From: Nemertoderma westbladi | Lineage: Eukaryota > Animalia > Xenacoelomorpha | NCBI GenBank assembly: GCA_032718475.1 | Contig: JAUCBJ010008010.1 | Coordinates: 1 to 45,939 of the forward strand | DNA: 45,939 bases | Direction: 5' to 3' | In this document: one piece after another, positions 1,983 through 37,613 of the stretch | Layout: each line of letters opens with the position of its first letter | Position numbering within the stretch: the first letter of the stretch is position 1 | Notes under the pieces: generated by a model | Seen by the model: only the letters and a program-made list of their open reading frames with translations | The model's database searches: none | Told to the model about the DNA's origin: nothing | Made by a program: the position numbers and the translations under genes

Positions 1983-4900
1983 CAGGCCCGTATCCTGCGG
2001 GGGGGGGGCTTTGGGGGCACTGCCCCCCCCCCCCCCCCCCAGACAAGACCCACTGCCCCCCCAGACATGTATTGTTCACTCGTCTTATTCACAATTAATT
2101 AATAATAATATTGTTGGTAATCAATAAAATTGGATTCACATACTGTACTCCTGCCCACTGACCTGACCTGACTCCCCACCATTCCATTTGGTCCAATTAT
2201 ATAATACTACATGACATTACAGTAATATACCTACCTGCCTGTAATTACTAAAAATACTCGAAAGCTCTAGGTTCTCTCATTGGCTACCAGAGTGGAGGGG
2301 TTGTTTGATGTTGACCCATTGTCTATTTGCTTGTAGTTTGGGAGCCAGCTTGCAGCTAAAAGGCTAGGCGCTGAGGGTTGCTTGCGCTGGTATCTATAGC
2401 TATAATTTGTTGTAACTTAACCTTAACCATATTAGACCTGAAGTACAGCACGCCAGCGTCGCGCAGCACGTAATATAAACTTATGTAAGTGTAATCTTGA
2501 AAGAAAAATAAGCAAAATCTAAGCAGATGCCCTTGATCACTTTACACCAGCCTAGAGGCAGGGTTTAAAACTGCAGTCGATTTAACCCTTGTGCTCTCTT
2601 TGAGGTCATTTTTGACCCATCGAAGATTTAAACTTACACAATTTTATCACACATTATATTTTATCTCGAAATTTTGTGACATTTATTATTTTATAGTAGC
2701 CTACTTCTCAATTAGAAAAACAAAAATGTAAAAATTTGCAAGGGGGTCTATTTAATTTTACAATTTATAGGGGCCTACACATATTGACTTTGAGGTCAAA
2801 TTTCACCTCATCGTGTTTTGTACTTGTACCATTCAATATCAACGAAAAACTTTAATGAATTTCAACTCAGTTCGCAAATCAGATGTCATCAAATGAGCCC
2901 AAACTTCGATAGATACCAAAATTTTGATTTGGGGATGACAAGAAATATTCCCACAGGCACATGGCAAGTTCCCGCCCTTGGTGCAAGTGAGTCATATTCC
3001 CCATTTTTGTGATGATCAACGTCTAGTATTCCTACTGCATTGATATTATGTTCATTTAGAACCGCAATGACCGATTTAGTTGTTGTAGACACCTTCAAAA
3101 CAAGCATAGAGCGAATTGTTTTTGAGATATTTGTCAGGTATTTGTCAATATCGCATCAAGGCGCTAATTTTGACTTGTGCCAGACTTCACATTATCTGCA
3201 ATATCTCAAAAACTATTCGCTCTATGCATGTTTTGAAGGTGTCTACACCAACTAAATCGGTCATTGCGGTTCTATTGAGCATAAATATCAATGCAGTAGA
3301 AATAATAGAAGTTGATCATCACAAAAATGGGGAATATGACTCACTTGCACCAATGGCGGGAACTGGCTATGTACCTGTGGGAATATTTCCTGTCATCCCC
3401 AAATCAAAATTTTGGTATCTATCGAAGTTTAGGCTCATTTTATGACATCTGATGTGCAAACTGAGTCGAAATTCGACAACAAGTTTTTTGGATCACCCAT
3501 ACCCTCCCATTAACCTGAGGTCAAAATTGACCTCAAAGGAATCATCTGTTTGAGAAACGAAAGGGTACACAAGGGTTAAGACCACAGAAATTGTTTAAAT
3601 GACACAGCTAATGGTCGAGTACAATTCTGCCAAGTTTCAGTGTAAAAGCTTTTGCGGACATAACAAGTCATTTTTACGCAATGCGCAGAATACTCTAAAA
3701 TAGCCCTAAATTTATCCAACTACGCGACGGGAAGGAATTAGAACCCAGATGAAGAAATCTGTCAGCTGATTCTTTGTAGACGTGGAAGTTCTTTGTTCTG
3801 TCTTATTAGCCAATCAGAGCAATTTTCACTTTACAGCTCACAGAAACCTATGGAAACTCGCGCAATGCATTTCGGTCTTTGTTTACTATTTTTCTAAGCA
3901 TCAGAACCAACTCAGAATTTCTGTGCTTCTGTGCGGAAGTTTCAGACTTTGGCCTAGGAACATCAGATGGTCTTGATTATAAGAACGTAAATCTATTAAC
4001 TGATGAACATTACCTCATTTACTCCTTTCTCATTACTGGACCACTGCATAAGTAACACATACTGACTGATCACCGCATTATTTTACTTCTGTTTTGTATA
4101 TTATTAATTGTTGTTATATTAATGGATATTGATGTTATATTTGGAGAATACCGATAAATAATCATAAACCCCTCAATCTTATTGATTACTGAGGTAAGAG
4201 GAATAGAGTTTACCGGTAGCAACTGCGACTTAAATTATAATGGTTTTGTGTGAATTAAATGCTATTTCATAATCCCTACGAGTGTCAGTTGCGATCCTCC
4301 TTATATATGATCAAATTCAGTGACGGTCGGCAGATTAGTGCGAACTAGAGTGAAGTAGTGTGAAGGTTAATAAAGCATCTCCTAAAGAATGCGCTATTTA
4401 CGAAACTCTGTGGCCATCCAGTTGTGATTAGTATAAGTCATAACTCTGTTTTTATATCTAAAGCGCCACGTCCTAAAGGATCTGTTAATATTTCCCCGAA
4501 AATAAATATAGTTGTCAGAGATTATATAGTAGCGATCAATCAAATAATACAGTAGGTCTACACTGCAATAACTCTCAAGGAATCCGAATCCAGTCTCCCA
4601 CACCGTGGGTCATACGCCGCGCACGGACTGGCTTCGGCTGAGGTAACTTCAGTACACTACGTAATTGATAAAAGGCTAAAGTCTATTTATAAACAAGAGG
4701 ACAACTAAAATTGGCAGGTTAAACTGCTAAAGGTCAAAAAGCGCGAACATTCAGCTTAAACGGATTAAAAGCAAAGAAATGGGAGGACATTTAATGTTTA
4801 GACATGTAGCCATCTAGCGGGCGACTGTTGAACTGTTGGGGTCAAAAGTCGCTAAATAATGTCAAGTTTTGGACATATTTATGCCTACAAATTTTCAATT

Positions 4901-13150: not shown

Positions 13151-13500
13151 ACGCAATAATTTTTATTGTCCGTTTTTATCCTTTTTTTGTCATTTTTTTT
13201 TTATTTTTTATGTCATCCAAAAGTCTAATATTATTCTGTATTTTAGTACCGGTACCGGCACTGGTACTGCTATAGGCCTACTGTGTAGCCTACCATTTAA
13301 ATACGGTAATGGTAGGCCTACTGGCCTACCGGTTGTGCTAATAAATTTTAAATAATTGATAGGAGAATAATATCTTTCACATAATTTAGGCCTGTAATAT
13401 TTTTATAATCAATAATGGATCATGACTACTGTCTGAATAGTGTTACGGATAGCGGCACCACTACTTCCAACAGCACAGATCAGTTCATAAACTCATCCGT

Positions 13501-14039
13501 TGTGACGGGATCCAGGAGGGATCCCGATTTATCCGATGTGGTATTTAGTCCACGCGTCCCCGCCGTGTATGAGAGTGAAATAAAGATAACTGAGTTCTGA
13601 AGTTCGGTGTATAATAATAGGTTATAGGATATAGATATATTGTGAATTATACGGTAGGCGGGATACGGTAACTAAAGTCCCGTGATCCCCTAACTAAACT
13701 AACTGGCTGTACCCTACGCTAGCACTGCTGCACTGAGATAACTGAATCACTGATTAATAGGTTATTGGTTATATTGCACGGTGGCCTTACTGCTACTCAA
13801 TCGATGCCATTCCCCCCTCTGATTGGTTAATACCCTTGTTGGCGCCCCGTGGAGTATTCCCGTTCACTCCACCTGTTCTCTCTGGGATTAGGGGTTTGGC
13901 CCCTGACCCTCTATTGTGTGCTTCCTTCCCACTCTTATTGGGATGGCACGAGTTGGTTAATTGCCCAATCTCGTGGCTCCCAATATTGCTTATCGGCTAA
14001 TAACTTTATGGGGTGTTGGCGGGATTGAATAAGCTAACA
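13501..14039 (-). repeat. 3' LTR (539 bp)
   Basis: TGTGACGGGA...AAGCTAACA on +. By eye identical to 29100-29637 except for one small cluster (TCTGGGATTAGG vs CTTGGGTTAGG near 13881/29480). Confidence 0.97.
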
Positions 14040-14048
14040 CTCCCCCCC
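14040..14048 (-). other. Polypurine tract
   Basis: Minus strand reads GGGGGGGAG immediately before the TGTTAG start of the 3' LTR. Confidence 0.85.
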
Positions 14049-14747
14049 ATGCTATCTTCCCGGTAAGAAGATAGCATCAACCAAAAAAGTGCGCTACAAT
14101 CCCGCTGGATCCCGATCTAGTATCGGGTGTGGGGTGGAATTCTTTTCTCTTGGAGCCGGCTTTCCAGGCCGCCCCCTATGGGTATGATAACGCTACCCTG
14201 TGTGCCTGGCGTCTCATGTCGGGCCGATCGCGCTCACCTCTTCACGCGATTTTTGTTTCCCCAACACTTTCGCCCTACCTCCCCTCTACTCTCACCCTAA
14301 CTCTCTCATACCCCCGGACCTCCTCGTCCCTCACTCAGCCTCTTATTCTCCCCCCCCCACACTAGAATTGCGCTCGCACTCTCTCCGCACTTCACACTCT
14401 TATTCCGATTCTCAACTCCACTTTGACTGTTTTATCTCTCCTGACGAACCTCCCCCCCCTCTCGTGCCGCCGCACTCAAGAAGCGTGAAATTGTCAGTTG
14501 TCTCGTCCATAGTGCCATAGTCAATTGTCCCCCAGTCCCAGTAGCTAATTGAGAAAGGTTGTATGACTATAGTACTTACTCCAAACGTATGTATTTTACT
14601 GCTAATCACTACGTACGTACATACGAATTGCACTTATATGGTTATTTGCATTAATTAAATTTATACTTAATAGTTCGTACGTTACATGCGGCGCCTTCCA
14701 GGCGCACCACTTCCCAGTCTCAGTCTCATTCCCTCGTCTCCGGGAAC

Positions 14748-17282
14748 TTATCTGTTCCTCCTCACATCCTCTTCCCTGGCCCGTTTCTTGGTTATCACCG
14801 CTCCTCTGGCATCATCCGCTTTCTGCTTCCGGACCTTCGCTGCCACTTCCTTGCTGATCCCGGTCGTCGGCTCCTTGGGCGCTGGTGTTATTAAAGCCCG
14901 ATACCGCTTCGCCGGTGGCCCCTCAGAATGGCCTGGTTGTCTCCCTCGTGTGGCATCCCATAGGATCATTTTCATTGCCTTTGGTACGTGTTCCGCCAAG
15001 AAATCCCTAAACTCCCTCCGGTTCTCTGGTGTCCACCTGTCCAGGTACCGTTGCGTGTTCATAACTCCGGCGAACGATGCCGCCGTAGCTACCTCTTGAT
15101 AGGTAAACGGTAACCTTCGCTTTATGATTTCCATGTGGGTCTCCTGGTTTATGAGGAAGAAACCCCACTTGAACTCTTGGGCCTTCATGCGCTGGCGCGT
15201 CATGGCCCCGACGTCGGCCCACTCCTCGAACCTCGTGAACTTCTCCTCGTCGCTCATCCAGTCGCACTCGCGTCCGTAGTGTCCCCGAAAGTGGCACTTT
15301 GGACATCGGTTATGCAACCGTGGACACGCCCCCATCCTGTGACTTGGTTCTCTGCAGTAGAGACAAAAGGTTCCCCGTTGGAACCGGTATAGGCAGCTGC
15401 TTTCCCGATGGGTCTGTCTCCCACAGTAGTCGCAGCCGAGTACCAATGTCTCGCGTCCCACCTCGTCCTTCGTCCCAAGCGATCTCCGCGGTCTATGGAG
15501 TCGCTGGTAGGCAAACTTCTCCACGTTGCTCTCCCTGTTTACGTCTATCTCTCCGCCCCTTTCGGGCATCGTCTCCCCGAATACTATCCGTGGTGCCGTT
15601 CCCGGTTGCTCGCCCAACCTGATGGTGCTCCCCGCGAAATCCATCGCCGGCCCCTCGTGCACCCAGGTCCGCTTGCCGGATCTGTTCCAGAAGGCCCTCG
15701 CCCCACTGGCCGTCACCACCCTTCCGCCAACCCAGTCTGTGTCCGAGTGGCCTATCCTTTCGATGGGCGGCATCTCTCCGAACTCGTCGTCGTCGTCCTC
15801 CTCTTCCGGTAGTGTCTCCAATCCCGGTATCCCGATGGATCCACTATGTCCCTTCCCGCCTTGGCTCTCGCCCGTAGCTCTCCATCCCTCTAGCTCCCTT
15901 AACTTCCTTGGCGGTTGGTCGCCCTCGGCGCCCGCTGGCATGGGCATCGTTTGCAACCCCGACGTCGACTGTTTCGGCGATCCCACCGTCCATCCCAATT
16001 CTCGCCCTAGAGACTCCCCCGAACTCCCTGACGAAGTCCAATGAAGCTCGTCTAGGCCCGCCTGTTCCTCGAAGCCGTAGCTCTGTGCCCTGGCCTCCTC
16101 TTCCCTTTCCTCTGCTTCTATCCTCTCCCGTCTAGCGACTTCTTCCAGTCGCTTTGCTTCTCGTCTGTCCATCTCTAGCTGCTCCCATCTCTGATACGGT
16201 GTATCTGTCTCCCCATCTACCAGATGTCGGCTGTTGTAGTACACCGACTCGCCCTTCAGCCCCGGGTGGTCTACCAGACCGTCAAAGGCCGTCTTAAAGG
16301 CTCTCCTGTAGCTTAGGGGTGATCCCGATAACAGAAATGCCCCTGGTTCCCTTTCGATAACTACGGTCATGAATAAGTTAAGCAGACTTATCATCATCCA
16401 GTCCTCCTGCAGGATATATCGCTTCTGATATACCTTTATCGCTCCTCTGCGAAACTGATATACCTCCTGCTTTCCCGGTCTCGCTCCCCACTTCAGCGAG
16501 TTCGCTAGTTCTGCTCCGTATTCTTCCCTAAACTTCCCCCAATCCATTGGTTTGTGGCATACGAGCCCCAATAATTGGCCCATCGCCACCGCCCCGCATT
16601 GGCCTGAGTTCTCGACCACCCCCAATCCATCCGGTGCCGTCATAGCCATAAAGACTTTCTGCATATCCAGGAGGTTGGTGGCGTCCGGACCGATGATCCT
16701 CTCCGCGTCCTCGCGAATCGCCGATCCCACTTTCGTCGTCGACTTCTCTCTTACTAAGACTTGTACCGCTTTCGGCAGTCGGTCTAATTTCGGCCCGTCC
16801 TTCTTCCCATACGTCCCTAGGTCGAATAAGAAGATGTCCCCATTCGGCGCGGCCAAATGTAGGAGTATGGTCCTGGCCGACCCTGCCGTTCCTCGTCTTG
16901 AACCCGCTTCGTCCTCCACGGTTCCCTCGTCATCTAGGATCATGTATCCTCCTCTGTTGACGGACTCTATGAATCTTTTCCAGTCCTTCCTCGGCGATTC
17001 CCTCGGATACTTCGGAATCCCGAACTTCGCTTCGTCTCCTTTCACCACGTAGTGGAAGTGTTGGAAGATCGCGTTGTCCAGCGACGGCGTCCCGTAGGTC
17101 CCGACCAACCGCTGTTCGTGCGCCTCCCGGAAGTGATCCTGCAGCGCTCGTGCCGCGTGACCCCTTTCCAACCTCTCGTAGTATCCTCTCGTCTTCTCCT
17201 CCGGGTGTCTTTCGGTGAAATCCACCAATATTTCTTTTCCTCCTGACTCCGCCTTTCTCTTCCTGATCAGCTTACTCGCCAT
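14748..17282 (-). CDS. Retrotransposon extra ORF: DEDDy (RNase D/WRN/EXD/MUT-7-like) 3'-5' exonuclease plus three CCHC zinc knuckles, 844 aa from first ATG
   Basis: ExoI YMILDDEG; LLHLAAPNGDIFLFDL; LPKAVQVLV...KVGSAIREDA (ExoII); LLDMQ; GAVAMGQLLG; Q.RYILQED (ExoIII-like), all within ~16390-16960. CDYCGRQTHRESSC, CLYCREPSHRMGAC and CPKCHFRGHYGREC at 15264-15434. ORF is uninterrupted; ATG context GGAATGG. Confidence 0.85.
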   Translation of the reverse strand: MASKLIRKRKAESGGKEILVDFTERHPEEKTRGYYERLERGHAARALQDHFREAHEQRLVGTYGTPSLDNAIFQHFHYVVKGDEAKFGIPKYPRESPRKDWKRFIESVNRGGYMILDDEGTVEDEAGSRRGTAGSARTILLHLAAPNGDIFLFDLGTYGKKDGPKLDRLPKAVQVLVREKSTTKVGSAIREDAERIIGPDATNLLDMQKVFMAMTAPDGLGVVENSGQCGAVAMGQLLGLVCHKPMDWGKFREEYGAELANSLKWGARPGKQEVYQFRRGAIKVYQKRYILQEDWMMISLLNLFMTVVIEREPGAFLLSGSPLSYRRAFKTAFDGLVDHPGLKGESVYYNSRHLVDGETDTPYQRWEQLEMDRREAKRLEEVARRERIEAEEREEEARAQSYGFEEQAGLDELHWTSSGSSGESLGRELGWTVGSPKQSTSGLQTMPMPAGAEGDQPPRKLRELEGWRATGESQGGKGHSGSIGIPGLETLPEEEDDDDEFGEMPPIERIGHSDTDWVGGRVVTASGARAFWNRSGKRTWVHEGPAMDFAGSTIRLGEQPGTAPRIVFGETMPERGGEIDVNRESNVEKFAYQRLHRPRRSLGTKDEVGRETLVLGCDYCGRQTHRESSCLYRFQRGTFCLYCREPSHRMGACPRLHNRCPKCHFRGHYGRECDWMSDEEKFTRFEEWADVGAMTRQRMKAQEFKWGFFLINQETHMEIIKRRLPFTYQEVATAASFAGVMNTQRYLDRWTPENRREFRDFLAEHVPKAMKMILWDATRGRQPGHSEGPPAKRYRALITPAPKEPTTGISKEVAAKVRKQKADDARGAVITKKRAREEDVRRNR

Positions 17283-17784
17283 TCCGAACACTACACTCGC
17301 TCACCTGTAGGGTGGTGCCTTACCAAGGCGCAATACAGATGAGTGATGTATTAAGATGTTTCGTACAGTTCGATAATGGCCTACTTTTCTACTTAACTGC
17401 GCCTTTCAAGCTTAATTTAATCTAATTAATTTCGGAGCTAGTAAATCAGCCTAATTTACAATTTCCGTCCGTTACTTTTATTATGTTCTAGAACGACTTT
17501 CTTTGTGTTACCACTATTTTCCGATTTTTAGCCCTATTCTATTTATTTATTTATTTGCTTTGATTCTACTGTCCTACTACTTACTACTGCCTATGGATTT
17601 ATTCTATTCTCTCTCTGATCCATATTCTGGCCTACTCAGTGGGCCTATGCAGTACAGCAGTATGCGTCGTGTGGCCACACGATTTATCCAGCTGCACTCA
17701 TATGCCCCCCTCTCGCTACTAACTCTACTTACTGCTAACTAATATCTATATCCTATTTACCCCTTTTACCTCTTACTCTCTCTC

Positions 17785-18272
17785 TAACTAATGGTACTAC
17801 GTACCCTCTAACTCTAACTCTAACTAGGTACTACGTACCTACTAACTCTAACTCTATCGGTACTACCTACCCTCTAACTCTAACTCTAACTAGGTATTAC
17901 GTACCCTCTAACTCTAACTCTAACTAGGTACTACGTACCTACTAACTCTCTAACTATCGGTACTACCTACCCTCTAACTCTAACTCTAACTAGGTATTAC
18001 GTACCCTCTAACTCTAACTATCGGTACTACGTACCCTCTAACTCTCTAACTCTAGGTACTACGTACCTACTAACTCTAACTATCGGTACTACGTACCCTC
18101 TAACTCTCTAACTCTAGGTACTACGTACCTACTAACTCTCTAACTATCGGTACTACGTACCCTCTAACTCTCTAACTCTAGGTACTACGTACCTACTAAC
18201 TAACTAACTCTAGGTACTACGTACCTACTGACTAACTAACTCTAGGTACTACGTACCTACTAATTAACTAAC
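17785..18272. repeat. Hairpin minisatellite array, copy 1 (15 GGTACTACGTACC-type cores, 30-34 bp period)
   Basis: Cores start at 17793, 17827, 17859, 17893, 17927, 17959, 17993, 18023, 18055, 18085, 18117, 18149, 18181, 18213 and 18245, separated by (CTAACT)n-like spacers. Confidence 0.95.
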
Positions 18273-18371
18273 TTTTATTTTTATTTTTATTTTATTTTAT
18301 TTGTGTGGGAAGGGCGTCTCGCCCTCAATCCCACCCCCCTCAGTCCAAAACTTGGACGACTAAACCTCACA

Positions 18372-19320
18372 CTAACTCTGCTTTAAGGTGCTCCTTCTAG
18401 AAGACAGCATTTGCCTACCGCTCTCCTGTAGGTTTTTCTGTCCTTCGCACCTATCTTTCCACCTATCCGCACTTCTACCGATCGGACTCTTCCGTCCTCG
18501 TCGGAGTAGGTGCCTACAACTCTCGCCAACCGCCACTGGTTGTTGATGATAGTATATGATCCCCTCGCACTTCGCAAGTACTGTCCGTAAGACGTCTTCA
18601 GTGACCATGTGGGTGTTCATCAGCTTCGTCATTAGACGTTTTGAACTGCCCACGAGTCTCTCGACGCATCCTAATGTATGTGGTGCATACGGCGTCCTTC
18701 TCTCCCACTTCACTTGTCGTCTTCTCATGGCCGCCCTGACTTCTTCTCCCTCCAAGATGTCTAAGGCCTCTGCCATCTCACTCTCTGCGCCCACAAAGTT
18801 GGTGCCGTTGTCGCTATATATCACTGCGATCGTCCCACCCTTGCGGTCCCTAAACCTCTCTAAGGCGTTAATGAACGCTGATGCGGTTGCATCTTGGGCG
18901 AGTTCTATCCCCACCGCCCGCGTATTGTTGCATACGAAGATAATGCCGTAACGTTTCTCCGTGTGTCGCATCACTTTGATCTTTATCGGCCCGAACATGT
19001 CCACACCGCAATGCGTAAATGGCGGGTCGTGCTGTCTTACCCTACTCGCCGGTAGTGGCGCCATCTCCTGTACGGCTCGCTCCTTCTTCGCTCGTCGGCA
19101 GGTCTGGCACTGCCCCACTACCGCTTTCACCTTTTTCCTTAATTGTTTGACCCAATAGGTCCTTCTCATCTCTGTGAGGGTTCGGTTGGTGCCCCCATGC
19201 AGTATCGATTTGTGGGAGTCCCATATGATCTGGTGGACTATAGGCGATCCTGTGGGAATGATGATGGGTTTCGGTGGCACGACTATACTGTTGTTATATC
19301 CCACCCTAGAATTCATTACT
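18372..19320 (-). pseudogene. Duplicated integrase segment (HHCC plus DDE core)
   Basis: Identical to the last 314 aa of the 20671-23652 ORF; created by the tandem duplication. Confidence 0.9.
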
Positions 19321-19581
19321 TCGCTTCGCTTCGTCTCCTTTCACCACGTAGTGGAAGTGTTGGAAGATCGCGTTGTCCAGCGACGGCGTCCCGTAGGTCC
19401 CGACCAACCGCTGTTCGTGCGCCTCCCGGAAGTGATCCTGCAGCGCTCGTGCCGCGTGACCCCTTTCCAACCTCTCGTAGTATCCTCTCGTCTTCTCCTC
19501 CGGGTGTCTTTCGGTGAAATCCACCAATATTTCTTTTCCTCCTGACTCCGCCTTTCTCTTCCTGATCAGCTTACTCGCCAT
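19306..19581 (-). pseudogene. Truncated duplicate of the exonuclease ORF N-terminus
   Basis: MASKLIRKRK...GDEAK is identical to the start of the 14748-17282 ORF, then crosses the duplication junction and stops before the nuclease domain. Confidence 0.9.
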
Positions 19582-20083
19582 TCCGAACACTACACTCGCT
19601 CACCTGTAGGGTGGTGCCTTACCAAGGCGCAATACAGATGAGTGATGTATTAAGATGTTTCGTACAGTTCGATAATGGCCTACTTTTCTACTTAACTGCG
19701 CCTTTCAAGCTTAATTTAATCTAATTAATTTCGGAGCTAGTAAATCAGCCTAATTTACAATTTCCGTCCGTTACTTTTATTATGTTCTAGAACGACTTTC
19801 TTTGTGTTACCACTATTTTCCGATTTTTAGCCCTATTCTATTTATTTATTTATTTGCTTTGATTCTACTGTCCTACTACTTACTACTGCCTATGGATTTA
19901 TTCTATTCTCTCTCTGATCCATATTCTGGCCTACTCAGTGGGCCTATGCAGTACAGCAGTATGCGTCGTGTGGCCACACGATTTATCCAGCTGCACTCAT
20001 ATGCCCCCCTCTCGCTACTAACTCTACTTACTGCTAACTAATATCTATATCCTATTTACCCCTTTTACCTCTTACTCTCTCTC

Positions 20084-20571
20084 TAACTAATGGTACTACG
20101 TACCCTCTAACTCTAACTCTAACTAGGTACTACGTACCTACTAACTCTAACTCTATCGGTACTACCTACCCTCTAACTCTAACTCTAACTAGGTATTACG
20201 TACCCTCTAACTCTAACTCTAACTAGGTACTACGTACCTACTAACTCTCTAACTATCGGTACTACCTACCCTCTAACTCTAACTCTAACTAGGTATTACG
20301 TACCCTCTAACTCTAACTATCGGTACTACGTACCCTCTAACTCTCTAACTCTAGGTACTACGTACCTACTAACTCTAACTATCGGTACTACGTACCCTCT
20401 AACTCTCTAACTCTAGGTACTACGTACCTACTAACTCTCTAACTATCGGTACTACGTACCCTCTAACTCTCTAACTCTAGGTACTACGTACCTACTAACT
20501 AACTAACTCTAGGTACTACGTACCTACTGACTAACTAACTCTAGGTACTACGTACCTACTAACTAACTAAC
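20084..20571. repeat. Hairpin minisatellite array, copy 2
   Basis: Duplicate of 17785-18272 at +2299. Confidence 0.95.
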
Positions 20572-20670
20572 TTTTATTTTTATTTTTATTTTATTTTATT
20601 TGTGTGGGAAGGGCGTCTCGCCCTCAATCCCACCCCCCTCAGTCCAAAACTTGGACGACTAAACCTCACA

Positions 20671-23652
20671 CTAACTCTGCTTTAAGGTGCTCCTTCTAGA
20701 AGACAGCATTTGCCTACCGCTCTCCTGTAGGTTTTTCTGTCCTTCGCACCTATCTTTCCACCTATCCGCACTTCTACCGATCGGACTCTTCCGTCCTCGT
20801 CGGAGTAGGTGCCTACAACTCTCGCCAACCGCCACTGGTTGTTGATGATAGTATATGATCCCCTCGCACTTCGCAAGTACTGTCCGTAAGACGTCTTCAG
20901 TGACCATGTGGGTGTTCATCAGCTTCGTCATTAGACGTTTTGAACTGCCCACGAGTCTCTCGACGCATCCTAATGTATGTGGTGCATACGGCGTCCTTCT
21001 CTCCCACTTCACTTGTCGTCTTCTCATGGCCGCCCTGACTTCTTCTCCCTCCAAGATGTCTAAGGCCTCTGCCATCTCACTCTCTGCGCCCACAAAGTTG
21101 GTGCCGTTGTCGCTATATATCACTGCGATCGTCCCACCCTTGCGGTCCCTAAACCTCTCTAAGGCGTTAATGAACGCTGATGCGGTTGCATCTTGGGCGA
21201 GTTCTATCCCCACCGCCCGCGTATTGTTGCATACGAAGATAATGCCGTAACGTTTCTCCGTGTGTCGCATCACTTTGATCTTTATCGGCCCGAACATGTC
21301 CACACCGCAATGCGTAAATGGCGGGTCGTGCTGTCTTACCCTACTCGCCGGTAGTGGCGCCATCTCCTGTACGGCTCGCTCCTTCTTCGCTCGTCGGCAG
21401 GTCTGGCACTGCCCCACTACCGCTTTCACCTTTTTCCTTAATTGTTTGACCCAATAGGTCCTTCTCATCTCTGTGAGGGTTCGGTTGGTGCCCCCATGCA
21501 GTATCGATTTGTGGGAGTCCCATATGATCTGGTGGACTATAGGCGATCCTGTGGGAATGATGATGGGTTTCGGTGGCACGACTATACTGTTGTTATATCC
21601 CACCCTAGAATTCATTACTAGGATCCCATCCTCGTTGAGTTGTGGCGACAGCGTGATCAACTCGCTATCCCGTCGGAGGTGCTGTTGGTTACCGACACGT
21701 TCCACCTCGTCGCCGTAGTTCTTGCGTTGTTCATAGCGGATCACTGCCATGGCCGCTCCTTCCAGATCTATGGTTGTCCTGGTCTTCTTGTCCTTGCCGA
21801 CTCCCGCAAGGAAATTCCCAAAGGCTCTCCAGTACGCCACTAGTTTCTTGGTCTTATACCAACTAGAACTGTAGCTGAGGAGTTTATCCGTCGGGTTATC
21901 GCACAGTTCCCTTCCTGGTTGCACGTCCCTAATCTCCCTCACCATCTGGGAGTATATCTCTTCTCCCTCTGAATCTCCCTCTCCTTCTGATACTGGTTCC
22001 GAGCCCGGGTCCACCTTCTTCATCGGCGGCCAGGCCTCTCTATCGCTCAGAAATTGTGGCCCATGTTGCCACAATACTTCCTTCTTCAGGAAAGTGTGGC
22101 GTTCCACGCCCCTCGACAGCAAGTCCGCTGGGTTCTCATCTGTTGGGCAGTAGTGCCACCTTTCCAGTTCTGTGCTCGCCCTTATTTCGTCCACTCTATT
22201 CGCGACGAATATCGGGTATCTCGTCTTTTCGTTGTGTAGCCAACCAAGCACTACCATGGAGTCCGTCCAGTAGTGTGTCTCCACTATGTTGGGAATTGTA
22301 TCCACTAGGTAGGCTGTGGCTCTAACTCCTAGTCTCGCAGCTGTCAATTCTAACTTGGGAACAGATGCTGAATCTGGCGGCGTTGACTTAGCTTTGCTAA
22401 AGGCTAGTCTGGGCTTGTGAGGCCCCTCTCGTTGTACTAAATAGAGTGCCGCTCCGTATGCCTCTAACGACGCATCGGAGAACATATGTAAGTCCAGATC
22501 CGTCATGTTCCCGTCCGGAAAATACACTCGCGGCATGTTGTATGTTCCCATCCTTTCCAAGTCTCCTGTCCATTTGCTCCACTGTTTCTTGATGTCCTCT
22601 GGTACTTCTACATCCCACTCATCCTTCAATTTATATACTCTCTTGAGTATCTGTTTCCCCGTGACTAGTAGTGGGGATGCTAGGCCTAGGGGATCGTATA
22701 TCCTTGCTATATACGATACATAACCCCTCTTCGTATGGGTGTCTGCGCCCTCCTGGCTCAGCTGATACTTCAGTTCGTCTGTTTTCCTATCCCACACGAT
22801 TCCCAATGCCTTCTGCTGGGATTCCGTTCTCTTAATCGCCATGTCCTGTCCTCTGGCTGTTGTAGGGTTGTCCATGGTCGATTCTGGTTTCTTGTCTTCT
22901 ATTTCCTTGATGAATTCTTCTGAACTGGATTGGAATTTGGTCAGGTTGAAGCCGGATCCTTTCAGGATGTCGCGAACCTCGCGCCCTGTTTCCAGTATCT
23001 CCTCAACCGTATTTCCAGACTCCATACCGTCGTCTACGTAGAAGCCGCGTCTGATCATATCGACGGCCCTACTGCTGTATCTATCTTCCTTCCCCTTTAC
23101 CGTGTCTCTCACTGCCATAGTCGTCGTAAATGAGGACGACTTGGCCCCCATATTTTGTACTACCATCTTATACACTGGTATTACCGGCGGTTCTTCTTCG
23201 CCGTTATACCATAAGAAGCGTTGACTATCGCTATCTTCCTCTGTTACTCGGACTTGGTTGAACATGCCTTCTATGTCACACGTGAAGGCGTGTTTCCCAT
23301 TCCTAAATCTAAGTAGTACTTCTATGCCCGAATTGTATATGTTTGGGCCCTCTAGTAGGTAATCGTTTAAGCACTTTCCGTCGGTCTTTGCCGATGCATC
23401 GACTACCATCCTAAGTTTACCTTTCTTCGGGTCTAAAGCTACGTGGAGTGGCAGGTAGTATGTCCTGTCCGTGTTCGGTTCGTCGACCGGTAACTCCACG
23501 GCCCATCCCTTCTCGACGTACTTCTTGATCGTTTTGTGAATGTACTCGTTCTTCTCGGGGCTCCGTTGTAGTGTTTGTTTCAGCTTGCGGAGTCTCGTGA
23601 GTACCGTCCCTCTATTATCGGGTAGCGGTATCTTCGGTAGTTTCCATACCAT
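20671..23652 (-). CDS. pol: BEL/Pao Pol segment: reverse transcriptase, RNase H (Pao A17 region), integrase with damaged C-terminus
   Basis: YYLPLHVA..KLRMVVDASAK, LNDYLLEGP, CDIEGMFNQV, FYVDDG (RT); FSDASLEAYG, VPKLEL, WTDS, NPADLLSRG (RNase H); H.SILHGG...CQTC, GVDMFGP, SDNGTNF, GCVERLV (IN). The real C-terminus WRLARVV...DGRVRSVEV is in another frame (20682-20850). Confidence 0.93.
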   Translation of the reverse strand: MVWKLPKIPLPDNRGTVLTRLRKLKQTLQRSPEKNEYIHKTIKKYVEKGWAVELPVDEPNTDRTYYLPLHVALDPKKGKLRMVVDASAKTDGKCLNDYLLEGPNIYNSGIEVLLRFRNGKHAFTCDIEGMFNQVRVTEEDSDSQRFLWYNGEEEPPVIPVYKMVVQNMGAKSSSFTTTMAVRDTVKGKEDRYSSRAVDMIRRGFYVDDGMESGNTVEEILETGREVRDILKGSGFNLTKFQSSSEEFIKEIEDKKPESTMDNPTTARGQDMAIKRTESQQKALGIVWDRKTDELKYQLSQEGADTHTKRGYVSYIARIYDPLGLASPLLVTGKQILKRVYKLKDEWDVEVPEDIKKQWSKWTGDLERMGTYNMPRVYFPDGNMTDLDLHMFSDASLEAYGAALYLVQREGPHKPRLAFSKAKSTPPDSASVPKLELTAARLGVRATAYLVDTIPNIVETHYWTDSMVVLGWLHNEKTRYPIFVANRVDEIRASTELERWHYCPTDENPADLLSRGVERHTFLKKEVLWQHGPQFLSDREAWPPMKKVDPGSEPVSEGEGDSEGEEIYSQMVREIRDVQPGRELCDNPTDKLLSYSSSWYKTKKLVAYWRAFGNFLAGVGKDKKTRTTIDLEGAAMAVIRYEQRKNYGDEVERVGNQQHLRRDSELITLSPQLNEDGILVMNSRVGYNNSIVVPPKPIIIPTGSPIVHQIIWDSHKSILHGGTNRTLTEMRRTYWVKQLRKKVKAVVGQCQTCRRAKKERAVQEMAPLPASRVRQHDPPFTHCGVDMFGPIKIKVMRHTEKRYGIIFVCNNTRAVGIELAQDATASAFINALERFRDRKGGTIAVIYSDNGTNFVGAESEMAEALDILEGEEVRAAMRRRQVKWERRTPYAPHTLGCVERLVGSSKRLMTKLMNTHMVTEDVLRTVLAKCEGIIYYHQQPVAVGESCRHLLRRGRKSPIGRSADRWKDRCEGQKNLQESGRQMLSSRRSTLKQS

Positions 23653-23654
23653 TC

Positions 23655-25704
23655 CTATTGTATTATTGTACTTTGTAGAGCCTGCTTGTCTTCTACCGAG
23701 GTCCCGACCCCGGTCTCTTTCAGTCCCTCGAAGTCTTGTCTGAGCAGTCTTTTAAGCTGCTCCTCTGCTCCCTCGTCACCCATTTCCTGCATTGTTCCCG
23801 CGAACATGCATCCTGATGTCTCCGACATCCTGAATGGTATCTTGCTCTTAATTGGACCACTCAGCGTCCACCCGAATGGCGTTAATATGGCCACCGGGTC
23901 GCTCTGCTTGTCTTCGCCGAAGACCGTTTGCATTCTCTCGTGGGCCGTTGGGCAGTCCATGCCTACTATGATGGATACCTTCCTAACGTCCACGTCTGGG
24001 ATTGAGAAGTCAATGTTGTCCAGGAATTTGTATTGCTCGACCTCGATGTTGGTTGGCCGCCTGGCATTGATGTTAATTGACTCTATTACTTGGATGGGGT
24101 CGATGGTTGCCCCATAATCGCATCCTGGTGCCACTGCTGCAATTGCGCACCGTCCTGTCCTCATCTCTAGGATCTCGTCTTTGCTAGAGATGGTTGTCAC
24201 CGCCATCCTGCTTGGCCTCGTTCTCAACCCTATTTCTTCGGCTACCCATTCCTCAACTAATGTGAAGGCAGCTCCACTATCAACCAGCATTAGTGTTGTT
24301 ACTGATCGATTGCCTTCCCCGATCACTCGTACTGGTACTACTCCAAGTAGCACTGTTCCTCTCTTCTTCGCCCCTACTGTGCTCGTCGCCATCGTTTGGC
24401 CTCTCCTTTGGCCAAACTTGACCGGCTTCTCTTGGCACTCCCTAGCCTTATGTCCACTCTTCACGCACCGCGAGCAGATTTTATTGCTCGACGCGTAATC
24501 TATCTGGTCTTGCCTCGGTAGCGCCTGCCAGTACCTGCAGTTCATGGTTTTATGAAGCGCATTTGCGTGTAGCTGGCATTTGCTCTTTGGGTCATAGCCC
24601 TCTTTATACAATGCATTGCGTATCGCAGTTATGTTCGTACCAAAGTCCCTACTATTCTTATTGACTGGGTTTGGCCTACTGGACGTACTGGGGTTATGTT
24701 TATTCATGTTGTTATTGTTTCCCTGTCCGTCCCTTGATGTTGTCTTATCTTCGTTTGTCTGTGGACTTGCAGTCCCCTGCGTCGCTGCATACGGCAACGA
24801 TTGCCTGAGTCTCGGTAATGCGTTCGATGTGTTGTGCTCTGGCTTTGGTCTATGGTAGTCTGTCTTTGGTCCCTTTCCCAGGCTGTCTTCGCTATAGACT
24901 GGGTCAGTTATTAGTTCAGCCTCGTAATTTAAGAAGTTTGACATTTCTTCTAAACCTGGTTCCGCACCCTTCTTGTCCCGGGTGGAGAAAGCGATCTTCC
25001 TCCATTTGTTGCGCAGCCAGCTCGGTAGTGCCTGCGCTATCGTGGTGATGTTATTGGACGCGTTGAGTTCGTATGGCGCGTCTAGCGTCTTCAGCACGAT
25101 CAGCGCCTTCTCGACTTTGTTAGCAAACGTCTTAATGCTAACGGGATTATCCTGTAGGCCACCCGATGTTATGCCTCTCAGCGTTTGCCTGATGATCTTG
25201 GCCGGGTGTCCGTATTCCCTATCCAGTGCCCGCCATGCTGTCGTGAAGCCGCCCTCTATTCCCTGATATTGCCTCACGATGTCGTATGCTGGGCCTCCCG
25301 TGTACACTTGTAGATACTTTAGGCACTCCGCCTGCGTCAAGTTTTTTGTTAGTATTTCGTTACTATACATTCGCCGAAACTGTAAGTATTCTTCCGGCCT
25401 GCTCCCATCGAATTTGAACGGTTCCACGGGTGGTAATTCGATCCTCGTTTTCAACGCATCGATCAACGTGGCCATCCCCATTGCCTGCGCTTCTAATGGA
25501 TTCGACGGGTGCTGTATAGTTTCCCCTGTCTGGTGCGGTTCGTCCGTCCTATTTCTTGATCTTCTCTGATTCGGATATGTAATCGGGGGTAGCGGCCCCC
25601 TCCATATGTCTGTATCACACGACCTGTTTTCATCTAGGGGTCTCGTCGTTCTTGTTCCTGTCGGGGTATATTGTTGATATTGTGATGGGGGAATGTCACC
25701 CTGT
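23655..25704 (-). CDS. gag: BEL/Pao Gag core plus aspartic protease
   Basis: FKFDGSRPEEYLQF...YLQVYTGGPA...AWRALDREYG (Pao Gag, DUF1759-like); CQLHANALHKTMNC and CSRCVKSGHKAREC knuckles; LVDSGAAFTLV protease; AILTPFGWTLSGP. I read the frame open upstream of 25481 as far as the C10 run at 25705-25714. Confidence 0.9.
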
Positions 25705-28700
25705 CCCCCCCCCCACCGGTATGTCTGGTACTGGGGTTGATGTTAATATGTTGGGGCCCATACACCTATCCGCAATAATTCCCCCTTCCCCTGGGTATAT
25801 GTTATGTCCCTGCATGCTGTAGTCATACTGCTGTGCTGGTACCGGTATAGGCCTATCAGCTTCTGGCCTACTCGCCGGTATGTATTCCGCGACTTCCGGG
25901 TTTAATCCCGTTGTCCGCGCTATCCTATCGCCTACATTGCCTCTCTCAGTATGGCCTACGGTATGTGCAGTAAGACCTACAGTATGCCCTACAGTCTGCA
26001 TGTGTTGCTCGGGATCGAAGTTTATTCTTCTCGAATAACCCTCCCCGCGGCTACCGTATTCTCGATCGGTAGGTATATTCCGTCGGAAAGTTTCTCTTCG
26101 ATCCCCCTCTCCACTGTTTTCATCTTCGTACCGGTACATCGCGTACCCCTCTCTCGGCGTGTAATGCGTCTCACCGGATCGCATCCCTCCGGGGCGACGG
26201 CAATCTCCCGGAGTCCGACCCCACTGACTCTCCGTTCTCATCTCGACTACCGACGGCTCGCTGTCCGTCCTCGCTCTTCTATCGTTTGCGGCGATACTTC
26301 TACTACTGTCTTCCTCTCTTCTCCTATCAGTGGAATATTCCCGCTCACGAGATCTCTCGTCGACCTCCCGGTTAAACCCCACTGTTCTTCTTTCCTCCTC
26401 TGATCGGGCTCGACGCTCCGTCTGCCCTCCCGCGACGTCAACCTGTCTTTCTCTGCTCGATCGCACGTCGCGGGGGATACTCGCAATCCCCCTATTACTT
26501 TCCGTCGCCGGTTGTTGCGGTTTACCTTGTTCGGCCCTCGCATTGTCCGCTGACGGTTGTGGGACACTCTCTGCCCCCCCCCCCCCCCCCCCCTCTCGCC
26601 GCTAACTCTCTGTTGTGGGGCCCTTGTAGCCCGCCCCCACCCGCTACATTCTACTTCGCTACCTCTCGCCCCGCCACTATATATCTCTCTAGTCGACACA
26701 TCAACCCTACCACAGTCGGGTCTGTTCACCCCCGCCTCTCCCTCTGCTATTGCGTGGCCTTCCAGGCCCTCTACTCCCTGCCTACCAACTACGCGGCCTA
26801 CCAGGCCCTCTGCTCCCTGTCTACCAACTACGTGGCCTACCAGGCCCTCTGCTCCCTGTCTACTAACTACGTGGCCTACCAGGCCCTCTGCTCCCTGTCT
26901 ACTAACTACGTGGCCCACCAGGCCCTCTGCTCCCTGGTTACGTAGGCCCGACGTGTTTACATTAATAGCACCCATATTGGAAACGGAATTAATTTGCTCA
27001 TTTGAAACAAAATCATTTGTATTATTCTGCGCGACTACGTTATCTGAATTATTTTGTAAATTCGGGCTAAGATCATTATTTGAATTATTCGAATTATTCT
27101 GTGTAATTGCGTTATTTAAGTTATTTTGTAGGTCCGAATTCGAGTTATTATTTTGATTGTTTGAATTATTTTGCGTAACTACATCAATATTAGGATTATT
27201 TTCTATATTAACACTGGGATTGTTCTGATTTAAATTTAAATTACTACCACCAGGCAAAGTATTTCCTGTAATAAAGGTTTGATTAGCGTTATCCCATACG
27301 GTACTATTAATATCAACAACGTCTACTGTACCATTATTATTACCCCCCCCGCCCGTACGGTCGCACCAGTTCTGGGTCTGTCGTGCGGTCCCTGTCAGTG
27401 GAGTATTAATAAATATATCTACGGCCCTCGGCTCCTCAAAAATACTCGAGCCGGCCCCGGTTTCAGACGGCGGTCCCACTCGCACGTATTCCAACTCGTG
27501 CTCCCCTCTAATTATATTTCCCGCAAACTCACTCTGCCGTTTCTCTAATTCCTTGCGCTCCTTTTCACTCTCTGCCACTTTCCCCTCACGCTCCTGGGTG
27601 TCCTTGATGGCCGAGTCTGCGGCACTCTTAATGCTCTCCCTTCGTCTCGCCTCACGCTCTTTGCGTTCCTTTTCCTTTCTCGTCTCATATTCCTTGCGTT
27701 CCTTTTCCCTTTTTGCCTCACGTTCCTTGCGTTCCTCTTCCCCTTTTGCCTCACGTTCCTTGCGTTCCTCTTCCCCTTTTGCCTCACGTTCCTTGCGTTC
27801 CTCTTCCCCTTTTGCCTCACGTTCCTTGCGTTCCTCTTCCCCTTTTACCTCACGTTCCTTGCGTTCCTCGTCCTCCCTTGCCTCACGCTCTCTGCGTTCC
27901 CTTTCCTCTCTCGCTTCACGCTCCCTACACTCCCTTTCCTCTATCTCATCATACTCCCTTAGGCTTTTCAAAGCCCTTTCGGCCCTTTCTCCGGTTTCTC
28001 TAAGCAATACCGTTTCCCTCTCTAACCGCACTCTTCCCTCCTCTAGCCGTTCCTTCATTTCTCTCTGACCTTGCTCTGCCATGCTGAGACGGTATGCGGC
28101 TCCTATTTTCCTCACCGCTCTTTCTTTCGCGGAGGATGTAGCAGACTTATCGGTTATGACGGACTTCCCCCGCCTTCCCGACCTACTAACTTTCTCCCAC
28201 TTCCCGGAGCTTTCTCCGACCGACGAGGCCGAATCCTCGGTGTTAACCTCGGATTCGCCCCCTTTGAGTCCCCTCCAACCCACCGGTTTTACTCCCCGGG
28301 CATCGATTAAGTATGGCCCTATGTACACTGACGCTATGCTAGGTCCCATACTCCCACACTCCCATAGTTCAAACAGTTCGCCTGCAATTCCCTTTGCTCT
28401 CTCCCCGGCTAGTTCTCTCTGCCCAAAACGTATCAGGTAATTTAAGTGTCTATCCGACTCACCTAGTCGCTTTCTCAGTCTCACCTCGTCCACCTTCGCC
28501 CCTTCCTTCTTGGCGTCGTTTATCAGCTTCCGGGTCGCGTTGTAGGCCCGTCGAAGTCGGTCAGAAACCCCGACGTCCTCGTCGCCGACCTCTCCTCCGT
28601 CCCTCCGGGTTCGACGTCGTACCGGCGGCTCCACCGTCGCCGTTCCGGTGGGCCGTCCGTCGCCCTCGGCCTGTAGCTGGCCGGCGACATCGGTACCGAT

Positions 28701-29021
28701 CTTTCCTCCGTCTCTTCGCGTCCGGCGTCGCACCGTCGGCCCCACCGGTTCGGTGGGCCGCTCGTCGCCCTCGGCCGGTAGCTGGCCGGCGACATCGGCG
28801 CGCCGTCCTCCGTCCCGTGTCGACTCATCTCCTTCTCCCTCCGTCTCGCTCTCTCTCTCTCTTGGCTCGACTTCGGGTTCCAGGCCCTCCTCGTCCTGTG
28901 CTTCCGGTTCGCCCGTTATCGATGGCTCCGGCGTCGTGGGCCTGTATCGTTTGGTCGCGGCCTCGCGGATCGTTAGGTCTTCGTCCGGGGTCCGCGTCGG
29001 TGTCTCGCCCGATTCACTCAT
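25696..29021 (-). CDS. Long low-complexity N-terminal Gag extension, split by homopolymer frameshifts
   Basis: ATG at 29021, 78 nt after the 5' LTR. The 924-aa frame switches at C20 (26574-26593) into the 256-aa frame, which I read as open up to that run, then at C10 (25705-25714) into the Gag frame. Confidence 0.75.
26755..26940 (-). repeat. 39-bp coding tandem repeat (RQGAEGLVGHVVS)x~5
   Basis: CCAGGCCCTCTGCTCCCTGTCTACTAACTACGTGGCCTA units. Confidence 0.9.
27650..27925 (-). repeat. 30-bp coding tandem repeat (EERKEREAKG)n, charged helix/coiled coil
   Basis: TTGCCTCACGTTCCTTGCGTTCCTCTTCCCCTT-type units. Confidence 0.9.
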
Positions 29022-29099
29022 CTCGTTTGTGGCTGATGATTCGGCTAGCTAGGTTGCAGTTCTTAGAGTTTAACTAGGGCGGCAGCTCGGTTTAGTTAC

Positions 29100-29637
29100 T
29101 GTGACGGGATCCAGGAGGGATCCCGATTTATCCGATGTGGTATTTAGTCCACGCGTCCCCGCCGTGTATGAGAGTGAAATAAAGATAACTGAGTTCTGAA
29201 GTTCGGTGTATAATAATAGGTTATAGGATATAGATATATTGTGAATTATACGGTAGGCGGGATACGGTAACTAAAGTCCCGTGATCCCCTAACTAAACTA
29301 ACTGGCTGTACCCTACGCTAGCACTGCTGCACTGAGATAACTGAATCACTGATTAATAGGTTATTGGTTATATTGCACGGTGGCCTTACTGCTACTCAAT
29401 CGATGCCATTCCCCCCTCTGATTGGTTAATACCCTTGTTGGCGCCCCGTGGAGTATTCCCGTTCACTCCACCTGTTCTCCTTGGGTTAGGGGTTTGGCCC
29501 CTGACCCTCTATTGTGTGCTTCCTTCCCACTCTTATTGGGATGGCACGAGTTGGTTAATTGCCCAATCTCGTGGCTCCCAATATTGCTTATCGGCTAATA
29601 ACTTTATGGGGTGTTGGCGGGATTGAATAAGCTAACA
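29100..29637 (-). repeat. 5' LTR (538 bp)
   Basis: Direct repeat of 13501-14039, followed by TSD TCCGT. Confidence 0.97.
29339..29372 (-). promoter_or_regulatory. Candidate LTR core promoter: TATAA plus Inr-like TCAGTT
   Basis: Minus-strand TATAA begins at 29372; the A of TCAGTT is at 29342, 30 nt downstream. Confidence 0.45.
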
Positions 29638-29805
29638 TCCGTACTCGAAAAAACTACTTATACATGTTATACCCCGTTACCGTTTGATACCGGTAGTCAC
29701 AATGATAGCGAAAACAACGACCCGTTTTTAGCACAAAGGATCGGACGGCCAAGAGGTTCGTCCAATAAAGGGTATATACGGATTCGTACATTCTCAGACG
29801 TTGAC

Positions 29806-30548
29806 AATTTGGTTAGAAAATCCCGCCTCTGTAATCTGCCCCTTTCCCTCAATTAGCTAAATGATCGTTTATTGTTTTGGTTAGATAATCCCGCCTCTGT
29901 AACCTGCTCCTTTCCCTCAATTGGTAATGTTATCGTTTATTGTTTTGGTTAGAAAATCCCGCCTCTGTAACCTGCTCCTTTCTCTCAATTGGTAATGTTA
30001 TCGTTTATTGTTTTGGTTAGAAAATCCCGTCTCTGTAACCTGCTCCTTTCTCTCAATTGGTAATGTTATCGTTTATTGTTTTGGTTAGAAAATCCCGTCT
30101 CTGTAACCTGCTCCTTTCCGTCAATTTGTTAAATGATCGTTTATTGTTTTGGTTAGAAAATCCCGCCTCTGTAACCTGCCCCTTTCCCTCAATTAGTTAA
30201 ATGATCGTTTATTGTTTTGGTTAGATAATCCCGCCTCTGTAACCTGCTCCTTTCCCTCAATTGGTAATGTTATCGTTTATTGTTTTGGTTAGGAAATCCC
30301 GCCTCTGTAACCTGATCCTTTCCCTCAATAAGTTAAGTGATCGTTTTTTGTTTTGGTTAGAAAATCCCGCCTCTGTAACCTGCTCCTTTCCCTCAATTAG
30401 TTAAGTGATCGTTTATTGTTTTGGTTAGAAAATCCCGTCTCTGTAACCTGCTCCTTTCCCTGATTTGGTAAAGTGACTGTTTATTGTTTTGGTTAGAAAA
30501 CTCGGCCTTAACCTGCTCCTTTCCATCAATTGGTAATTGTTTTTGGCT
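29806..30548. repeat. ~68-bp tandem repeat, ~11 copies
   Basis: TTTTGGTTAGAAAATCCCGCCTCTGTAACCTGCTCCTTTCCCTCAATT... recurs at ~29813, 29881, 29949 ... 30493. Confidence 0.95.
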
Positions 30549-36614: not shown

Positions 36615-37613
36615 TAATGGCATGCAGTTCTGCCTCTCCCCAGAAGTTAAAGCCTGACACATTCATTGCCTAAGTTGCTTCTGTATCTCATCAGAACCAA
36701 AGCTTTTCATTGGCTGTATATTACTATCCTTGTTTTATTGGCTGGAATATTTTTTCATTGGCCAATCCAAGCATGGACCGGCTTTTATGGACCGACTTTT
36801 AGGGGTCAGGACCGACCGGGTTTTACCCGGTCCTAGTTTTGGATAAATTCCCCGTAGACTATCATAGGGACCGGCGGACCGGGTTTTAGGGGTCTTGGGG
36901 ACCGGGGACCGGGACCGGACCGGGTTTTAGGGAGGCCCGAAATTGATCAGCATTAAATTTTACGTGTATGCATCCAATGCTGTAATGGCCCATGGCTATG
37001 GCACTATCCTTGTAACCAGGCTGTCTTAATACTGTAATGCTTACCGGTACTACTCAGCTACTAAATATAGAAATATTTACAGCTTTAACTAACCCTAACA
37101 ATACTGCAATATCTGAATACTGGAATACACTACTGCACTACAGCACTAATACTGTAATCTGTAATCAGGTAATAGGCCTACCAGAATACAGCAATACTGG
37201 TACTTTGCGCCTCTACCGACTGACCAGTAAAACAAGGATAGTACTGCTGTACTGATACTGCACCGTATGCTGATTGGTTACAGTTCTTTGGTTGCCTGGC
37301 AACAAGCTTTCTGGGCAGTATTAGACTCTTTCAATTTATTTTTTTGCAGCATATAGGTAAAATTTAATGCTGATCAATTTTTTCACTGTTTTCCGGAAGG
37401 TTTATAGTGTTTTTATAGTGTTTTCCCTATGTTTTACGGTGATTACTTAAGGGGTGCTATGCGAGGAGTACATTTAGGATTGTCAATTCAGAGAAGTACA
37501 TGTGTTAAATTCCCTGCTGATCAATATTTTCACTGTTTTCCGGGTGTTTTACAGTACTTTTCTTATGTTTTCCTAGTGTTTTACCGTTTTACTAGTGTTT
37601 TCCTAATTTAGAA

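Follow-up and report, generated by a model that had tools for sequence, protein, structure and literature searches.

A predicted DEDDy-type exonuclease-fold and triple zinc-knuckle gene in the env position of a BEL/Pao-type retrotransposon of Nemertoderma westbladi

Introduction

What use is an exonuclease-like gene to a retrotransposon? The question is raised by a contig of Nemertoderma westbladi (JAUCBJ010008010.1; 'the window' below means this whole stretch of 45 939 nt), in which one long terminal repeat (LTR) retrotransposon of the BEL/Pao type occupies positions 29637 to 13501 of the minus strand. Inside it, between integrase and the 3′ LTR and on the same strand as pol, lies an intact open reading frame (ORF) of 844 aa, ORF3 (14748–17282, minus strand), which combines a predicted DEDDy-type 3′–5′ exonuclease fold with three zinc knuckles.

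DEDDy ORF3s have been described in the LTR retrotransposons Juno1/2 and Vesta2/5 and in Terminons of bdelloid rotifers by Rodriguez, Kenefick and Arkhipova in 2017 (PMC5408684). In the available text of that paper, DEDDy exonucleases are called previously unreported in retrotransposons, and what a retrotransposon does with one is left open. The available parts of later reviews repeat the description (PMC5718144, PMC6338049, PMC6431247). An initial annotation of the present sequence had mentioned this rotifer precedent, and the 2017 paper verifies it; for the nematode retroelements mentioned with it, the literature covered gave no confirmation. The BEL/Pao elements (Belpaoviridae) are described with genomes of 4.2–10 kb, LTRs of 0.2–1.2 kb and an 18-nt primer site for tRNA-Arg/Gly, and with a gene content of gag and pol, to which env may be added (PMC8742986).

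Results

Domains and fold of ORF3

All 844 codons of ORF3 are open, as the initial annotation had read them, and each motif that it had cited was located. In the exonuclease series, ILDDEG starts at residue 115, LLHLA at 140, DIFLFDL at 149, KVGSAIRED at 184, LLDMQ at 204 and YILQED at 289; exact CX2CX4HX4C knuckles start at residues 617, 640 and 660 (Table 1).

Folding of ORF3 as a single sequence was uninformative [predicted local distance difference test (pLDDT) 37]. AlphaFold2 run on a 29-sequence alignment with relatives (see below) predicted two confident regions flanking a disordered linker (mean pLDDT 63; core blocks mostly 76–93). With this model, the top ranks of Foldseek were Trypanosoma brucei RNase D (TbRND; E 4.5e-6), Nibbler, Egalitarian, Rrp6, EXD2 and Exd1, and the rows were DEDD-type enzymes. 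VIA-align superposed the model on the Nibbler EXO domain with a Z of 14.1 (203 aligned residues; root-mean-square deviation 3.2) and gave Z values of 12.9 for WRN, 12.6 for both RRP6 and Egalitarian-RNA, 12.4 for both Exd1 and E. coli RNase D, and 12.2 for TbRND. These scores are close to tied and single out no donor. Viral structural matches were 3′–5′ exonucleases of giant viruses and phages. The ESM Atlas pointed to PF01612 as a candidate family (25 of 30 matches, score 0.93, 34% of members); the knuckle part scored below 0.9 there. The profile of the family matched EXD2 at E 3.7e-10, TbRND at 5.9e-6 (mostly via the knuckles) and, less strongly, Egalitarian (E 0.009) and WRN (E 0.033). Among EXD2, WRN, Nibbler (MUT-7), EXD1 and Egalitarian, EXD2 is the best profile match of the ORF3 domain and Nibbler the best structural one, but the group shows ties, at identities of 11–21%. 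The structure prediction that the initial annotation had proposed as a check returned the expected type of fold, with matches to Nibbler, WRN, Rrp6 and RNase D at Z 12–14, and the model assigns the N-terminal domain to the DEDDy/DnaQ (RNase H-like) exonuclease fold. On the question of an HRDC domain, the whole-protein model continues past residue 345 as a loop followed by a single long helix, and ORF3 has no Pfam match.

A broad family of relatives

By itself, ORF3 matched no family in Pfam (two knuckle families came up only at E 0.11–0.13) or NCBIfam and no sequence among PDB entries or phages; plasmids gave one chance match (E 3), and three word-seeded protein searches returned nothing. When 1.84 billion representatives were scanned in full with HMMER, 73 matched at E≤1e-3, nearly all through residues ~600–750. 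One of them (P0042, 2805 aa) consisted of 14 repeats of a single 19-residue match and was dropped as an artefact, leaving 72 usable relatives. The N-terminal domain was present in 33 of the 36 relatives of at least 470 aa. Since nearly all had been found via their knuckles, the exonuclease-fold and knuckle modules travel together. A profile of the relatives' N-terminal domain, built with the query excluded, matched ORF3 residues 48–395 at 100–104 bits, compared with at most 4.6 bits in 1000 shuffles. Because its eight seeds had been chosen for weak similarity to the query, the comparison is only partly blind; that the match extends to 33 proteins does not depend on this choice. Relatives with the domain share 15–23% identity with ORF3 where aligned, and of the 28 aligned relatives, four match PF01612 at E≤1, the lowest E being 6e-5. 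The post-knuckle motif is common to all aligned relatives. By these comparisons, ORF3 belongs to a broad unnamed protein family that is mostly missed by Pfam.

Thirty relatives that were looked up form small clusters on contigs of 2.6–31 kb, none of them informatively named. Scans with ORF3, with the relatives P0044, P0065 and P0036 and with pol found no loci, and the alignment of the relatives had no stretch conserved enough for scanning. One relative (P0001) carries the knuckle module twice; another (P0048) has the knuckle module without the exonuclease domain and a weak homeodomain match.

Active site

In ORF3, the catalytic residues D117, E119, D192 and Y289 are canonical and ExoIII has E293 instead of Asp; alignment thus confirms the Y-x3-E in place of Y-x3-D that had been read from the sequence at the outset. 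Among the 28 aligned relatives, the set reads DEDYD in nine and, as in ORF3, DEDYE in four; two more are almost intact, 11 have lost either or both of the acids of ExoI, and two are truncated. Five of the 33 domain carriers, being partial matches (P0001, P0011, P0054, P0063 and P0064), are excluded from this count, and ExoI loss was counted over the 26 relatives that cover ExoI. Since four otherwise intact relatives have it too, the ExoIII Glu recurs as a natural variant. We regard ORF3 as a DEDE-y variant of the DEDDy fold, not as a canonical member, with putative metal-dependent 3′–5′ nuclease activity.

On a tree of 27 domains, which excludes the N-terminally truncated P0017 and P0031 and is poorly resolved with many long branches, the label intact or degenerate requires five changes, of which at least three are forced by well-supported branches. 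Catalysis thus appears to have been lost several times in the family while the fold and the knuckles stayed. Given that catalytic residues are missing from 11 of 26 relatives, the conserved core of the family probably lies in RNA binding.

Absence of envelope features

An env identity of ORF3 was considered and gained no support. Over the whole protein, the top 19-residue hydropathy is only 1.3 and the stretch that reaches it is the ExoIII helix, so ORF3 has no transmembrane segment; moreover, its N-terminus is basic. Hydropathy and position together support the initial description of a gene in the env position lacking the signal peptide and membrane anchor of an Env. Like the N-terminus, the C-terminal tail is basic, and it might serve as a nuclear signal or RNA-binding arm. 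A candidate splice acceptor (CCCTACAG/G) may lie about 22 nt ahead of the ORF3 ATG.

Selection on ORF3 in sister copies

Contig pieces of runs X1 and X3 were aligned to 13300–17700. The numbers aligned, 9365 (X1) and 5266 (X3), indicate an abundant element family but are not taken as copy number. Run X5, which may be of RNA, gave 16 aligned pieces and is excluded from the evidence. Differences between sister copies were judged from the 40 best supported of 523 differences and from 12 of 55 indels, which is not a full dN/dS analysis. Thirty-one of these 40 differences fall inside ORF3, 22 of them in third positions and 22 synonymous (p 2e-5). None of the 12 indels lies in ORF3, though it makes up 58% of the aligned stretch. 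The purine share of ORF3 is 0.63, close to that of pol (0.61) and unlike that of the flanks (0.51). Some sister copies have internal deletions, with joints at 14725–15270 and 14977–15471. In the runs aligned, no contig bridged integrase and ORF3 in sister copies, the contigs being too short. From the synonymous bias and the lack of indels among those listed, we conclude that ORF3 is under selection in sister copies. It is nearly certain that ORF3 is an intact, conserved accessory gene with a predicted DEDDy fold and three zinc knuckles.

The host element

Pfam finds DUF1759, an aspartic protease, reverse transcriptase (RT), the Pao Peptidase_A17 region (E 3.7e-40 in pol) and integrase, and the element is therefore of BEL/Pao type. 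Its two LTRs share 536 identities, with two mismatches and one gap, by which this copy is young or recently moved. Three contigs of run X1 read across an empty insertion site (loose end at 13500). The flank of the element is itself repetitive, so these contigs are ambiguous and may represent either the other allele or another copy of the flanking repeat. A predicted 13-bp hairpin (14049–14077, minus strand) adjoins the polypurine tract.

The gag–pol region of this copy is split over several frames, with changes near 26247–26601, 25696–25742 and 23655–23751. The C-terminus of integrase is cut at 18555/18556 and at the matching place in the other duplicate (see below); sister contigs carry other sequence there. 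Broken gag–pol despite LTRs that differ at three places points either to a defective copy that moved recently or to sequencing errors. The two frames upstream of the gag core (25696–29048) are probably an extended gag N-terminus. Within these ~3.3 kb of open frames are tandem repeats of 33 nt and 39 nt as well as two runs, one charged and coiled-coil-like, the other rich in Asn.

Positions 17025–19320 duplicate 19324–21619 with one mismatch. Owing to this tandem duplication there are two integrase copies, of which the second adjoins ORF3, and the first ~86 codons of ORF3 recur upstream as a truncated copy. No listed contig piece bridged the junction, and sister-copy contigs continue normally on either side, so the duplication would either be peculiar to this copy or have arisen in assembly. 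With it the element measures 16.1 kb, without it 13.8 kb. The spacer between integrase and ORF3 holds a roughly 500-bp array of 32-nt units (17769–18263 and 20068–20572).

A TGG-type tRNA primer site is absent from the 40 nt after the 5′ LTR of this copy (29060–29099). The first 9–10 nt after the 5′ LTR are complementary to two LTR sites near 29266–29295, and a match of 9 nt was reached in 36 of 5000 shuffles. The extended LTR duplex was reached by 48, 52 and 49 of 500 controls each and is not significant. Self-priming is possible, and a weak lead. The two LTR sites sit downstream of TATAA and TCAGT initiator-like motifs.

The element resembles Belpaoviridae in its LTRs, polypurine tract, DUF1759 gag, the order protease–RT–RNase H–integrase and Pao Peptidase_A17. 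It differs in its third gene, which is not env, in its length of 16.1 kb and in that the canonical tRNA primer site was not found in this copy. Being one copy classed by its proteins, it is called BEL/Pao-type here and not a formal member of Belpaoviridae.

Table 1. Coordinates in the window of the retrotransposon, of ORF3 and of its parts
Feature	Position	Strand	Basis or remark
3′ LTR, TG...CA, 539 bp	13501–14039	−	
5′ LTR, 538 bp	29100–29637	−	
Target-site duplication ACGGA	13496–13500; second copy 29638–29642	−	
Polypurine tract adjoining 3′ LTR	14040–14048	−	
gag (DUF1759, knuckle) and aspartic protease frame	23655–25742	−	Pfam
RT (YVDD), Pao Peptidase_A17 region and integrase frame; integrase C-terminus shortened	20671–23751	−	Pfam
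Two long frames upstream of the gag core (933 and 301 aa) that contain tandem repeats	25696–29048	−	No Pfam match
Tandem duplication, 2296 bp: integrase, repeat-rich spacer, first ~86 ORF3 codons	17025–21619	−	
ORF3	14748–17282	−	From the N-terminus: predicted DEDDy fold, charged helix, linker, CCHC knuckles, conserved post-knuckle helical module and basic tail
Predicted DEDDy/DnaQ-like 3′–5′ exonuclease fold, about aa 59–345	16248–17108	−	VIA-align; profile match to EXD2
ExoI, D117-x-E119	16926–16934	−	Alignment with relatives and EXD2
ExoII, D192 (KVGSAIRED)	16707–16709	−	Alignment with relatives and EXD2
ExoIII, Y289-x3-E293 (Glu in place of the canonical Asp)	16404–16418	−	Alignment with relatives
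Long charged helix, aa 362–401; HRDC-like bundle not seen in model	16080–16199	−	Predicted model
Linker with acidic run, low confidence, likely disordered, about aa 409–612	15447–16058	−	pLDDT mostly <50
Three CX2CX4HX4C zinc knuckles, aa 617–673	15264–15434	−	Motif read; 9 of 12 Cys/His invariant (29 aligned sequences)
Post-knuckle module F..FE..A..G..T..R.....WGF, family signature	15063–15263	−	Alignment; pLDDT 76–92
Basic C-terminal tail, Lys/Arg 17 of 54 residues	14751–14912	−	Composition

Discussion

ORF3 shares with the ORF3s of rotifer Juno and Vesta elements, as far as these are described in the available text of PMC5408684, a DEDDy gene in the env position, the lack of a transmembrane domain and an unproven function. 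A change from D to E is also reported there, with the motif written DEED, whereas the Glu of our ORF3 is in ExoIII (DEDE). The rotifer elements, compared by description only, belong to the Juno and Vesta lineages and are gypsy-like, not BEL/Pao. A knuckle array is undescribed in that text, in which only a Cys-His-Cys motif is given for Vesta2/5; our ORF3 has three CCHC knuckles.

A comparable architecture is that of TbRND, the best though weak match of the knuckle profile (E 0.009), in which an exonuclease domain is likewise followed by CCHC fingers. According to the available text of Gao et al. (PMC7797062; PDB 7c42–7c4c), TbRND is a cellular guide-RNA trimmer with four fingers and a 28-residue linker, and its CCHC domain gives RNA binding and strongly raises cleavage. 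In contrast, ORF3 has three knuckles ~270 residues away from the domain as well as the post-knuckle module, and identity is 17–18%. TbRND is best read as an analogue of ORF3. The initial annotation knew of no nuclease-plus-knuckle architecture; TbRND makes it clear that the combination as such is not new, while for BEL/Pao we did not find it published in the literature covered. The DEDDy fold, triple knuckle, env position and ExoIII Glu of the initial annotation are supported. Its comparison of the knuckles with Air1/2-ZCCHC7 gained no support: these are not among the 10 PDB matches at E≤10, and ESM Atlas rows with AIR2-like_ZnK4 score only 0.79–0.80 for the knuckle part.

In the literature covered, which is mostly open-access text (including the available parts of PMC554778, PMC3118150, PMC9094657, PMC11662393 and PMC12440569) and does not extend to Repbase, Dfam or GyDB, we found neither a BEL/Pao exonuclease ORF nor a transposon exonuclease with a knuckle array. 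What is new in ORF3 is the element class, the architecture and the breadth of the family; a nuclease ORF3 as such was already known. The findings extend the nuclease-type ORF3 from gypsy-like elements of rotifers to a BEL/Pao-type element, and the aligned sequences define a family of 33 domain-carrying members with natural active-looking and dead versions.

As to function, we tentatively favour, with a probability of about 40%, that ORF3 blunts host RNA silencing of the element. By analogy with TbRND, the knuckles would hold single-stranded RNA and feed its 3′ end to the two-metal site. Candidate targets are small RNAs of the host, precursors of these, or RNA ends of the element itself that need shielding; proteins of the family would trim them where the active site works and merely sequester them where it is dead. 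This interpretation is favoured because it would explain an optional gene under selection, its fast divergence and the dead versions, which resemble EXD1 and Maelstrom. Both are catalytically inactive DEDD proteins of the PIWI-interacting RNA (piRNA) pathway, according to the available text of PMC5408684, and the ExoI losses among the relatives of ORF3 may parallel theirs. Counter-silencing through small RNAs, if true, would make ORF3 a rare counter-defence enzyme encoded by an animal transposon. It is doubtful whether a whole widespread family of exonuclease-fold triple-knuckle proteins in animal retrotransposons suppresses silencing by piRNA or small interfering RNA, with trimmers in some lineages and dead-enzyme decoys in others.

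Several points weigh against counter-silencing. The substrate, activity and expression of ORF3 are hypothetical, its relatives are presumed to be transposon-borne, and Glu293 may lower activity. Among the top structural matches, enzymes of RNA and of DNA (Nibbler, NrnC-type, apPol, WRN and Rrp6) lie within ~1 Z of one another, so that the fold gives no preference for small RNAs. The 2′-O-methyl 3′ end of mature piRNAs resists many exonucleases. In rotifers, the available text of PMC5408684 gives no clear link between DEDDy ORF3s and copy number and reports that these ORF3s are themselves covered by small RNAs.

The repeated loss of catalytic residues in 11 of 26 relatives, with fold and knuckles kept, would also be expected if ORF3 were an adaptor that binds the genomic transcript of the element for export, localization or packaging, with catalysis incidental, much as Egalitarian applies a domain of exonuclease fold to RNA localization signals. 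The fold matches include Egalitarian-RNA complexes (Z 12.6), one of which contains I-factor RNA, the knuckles weakly resemble nucleocapsid fingers, and ORF3 has basic stretches at both termini. However, in 15 of the 26 relatives, as well as in ORF3, the acidic set is still complete or almost so over very long branches, a sign that catalysis matters in many lineages; we place an adaptor on the unlikely side, though as a close rival. Losses of the active site sit poorly with a replication enzyme that performs an essential catalytic step, such as trimming a 3′ end into a primer for reverse transcription or editing cDNA ends. Such a role would fit the lack of a TGG-type primer site within 40 nt of the 5′ LTR and the 9–10 nt LTR complement, as in self-priming elements (PMC6317226, available text), and 3′-end processing is proposed in the available part of Rodriguez et al. 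(PMC5408684). Yet the extended duplex was matched by ~10% of controls, the primer-complement test was made post hoc on a single copy, and the gene content described for BEL/Pao elements goes no further than gag, pol and env (PMC8742986); we consider this role unlikely, though it too is a close rival.

It is very improbable that ORF3 was captured from the host, or is a nested fragment, and travels along as a passenger of no use to the element. No aligned contig is long enough to join integrase and ORF3 in sister copies, and some copies have internal deletions (14725–15270 and 14977–15471), as a passenger might. Against this stand the synonymous bias and the absence of listed indels in ORF3 of sister copies, a strand skew like that of pol, a reading frame that stays open in a copy with broken gag–pol and the lack of an informative name in all 30 relatives looked up. 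With an intact selected gene, defined active-site residues, a predicted RNA-binding module and a solved analogue in TbRND, the question of what ORF3 does can be tested in vitro.

Other features of the window

Two intronless host-type frames lie on the plus strand, one encoding a C2H2 zinc-finger protein (230–1375) and one a WD40-repeat protein (38641–40137) in which an F-box-like motif was seen by eye. A 68-nt tandem array lies beside the 5′ flank of the retrotransposon (29808–30536). There are also long inverted repeats (30885–31341 and 36705–37613), about 5.4–6.3 kb apart, and a 640-bp foldback (2845–3488). Judged by their sequences, the array, the inverted repeats and the foldback are likely DNA transposons or miniature inverted-repeat transposable elements.

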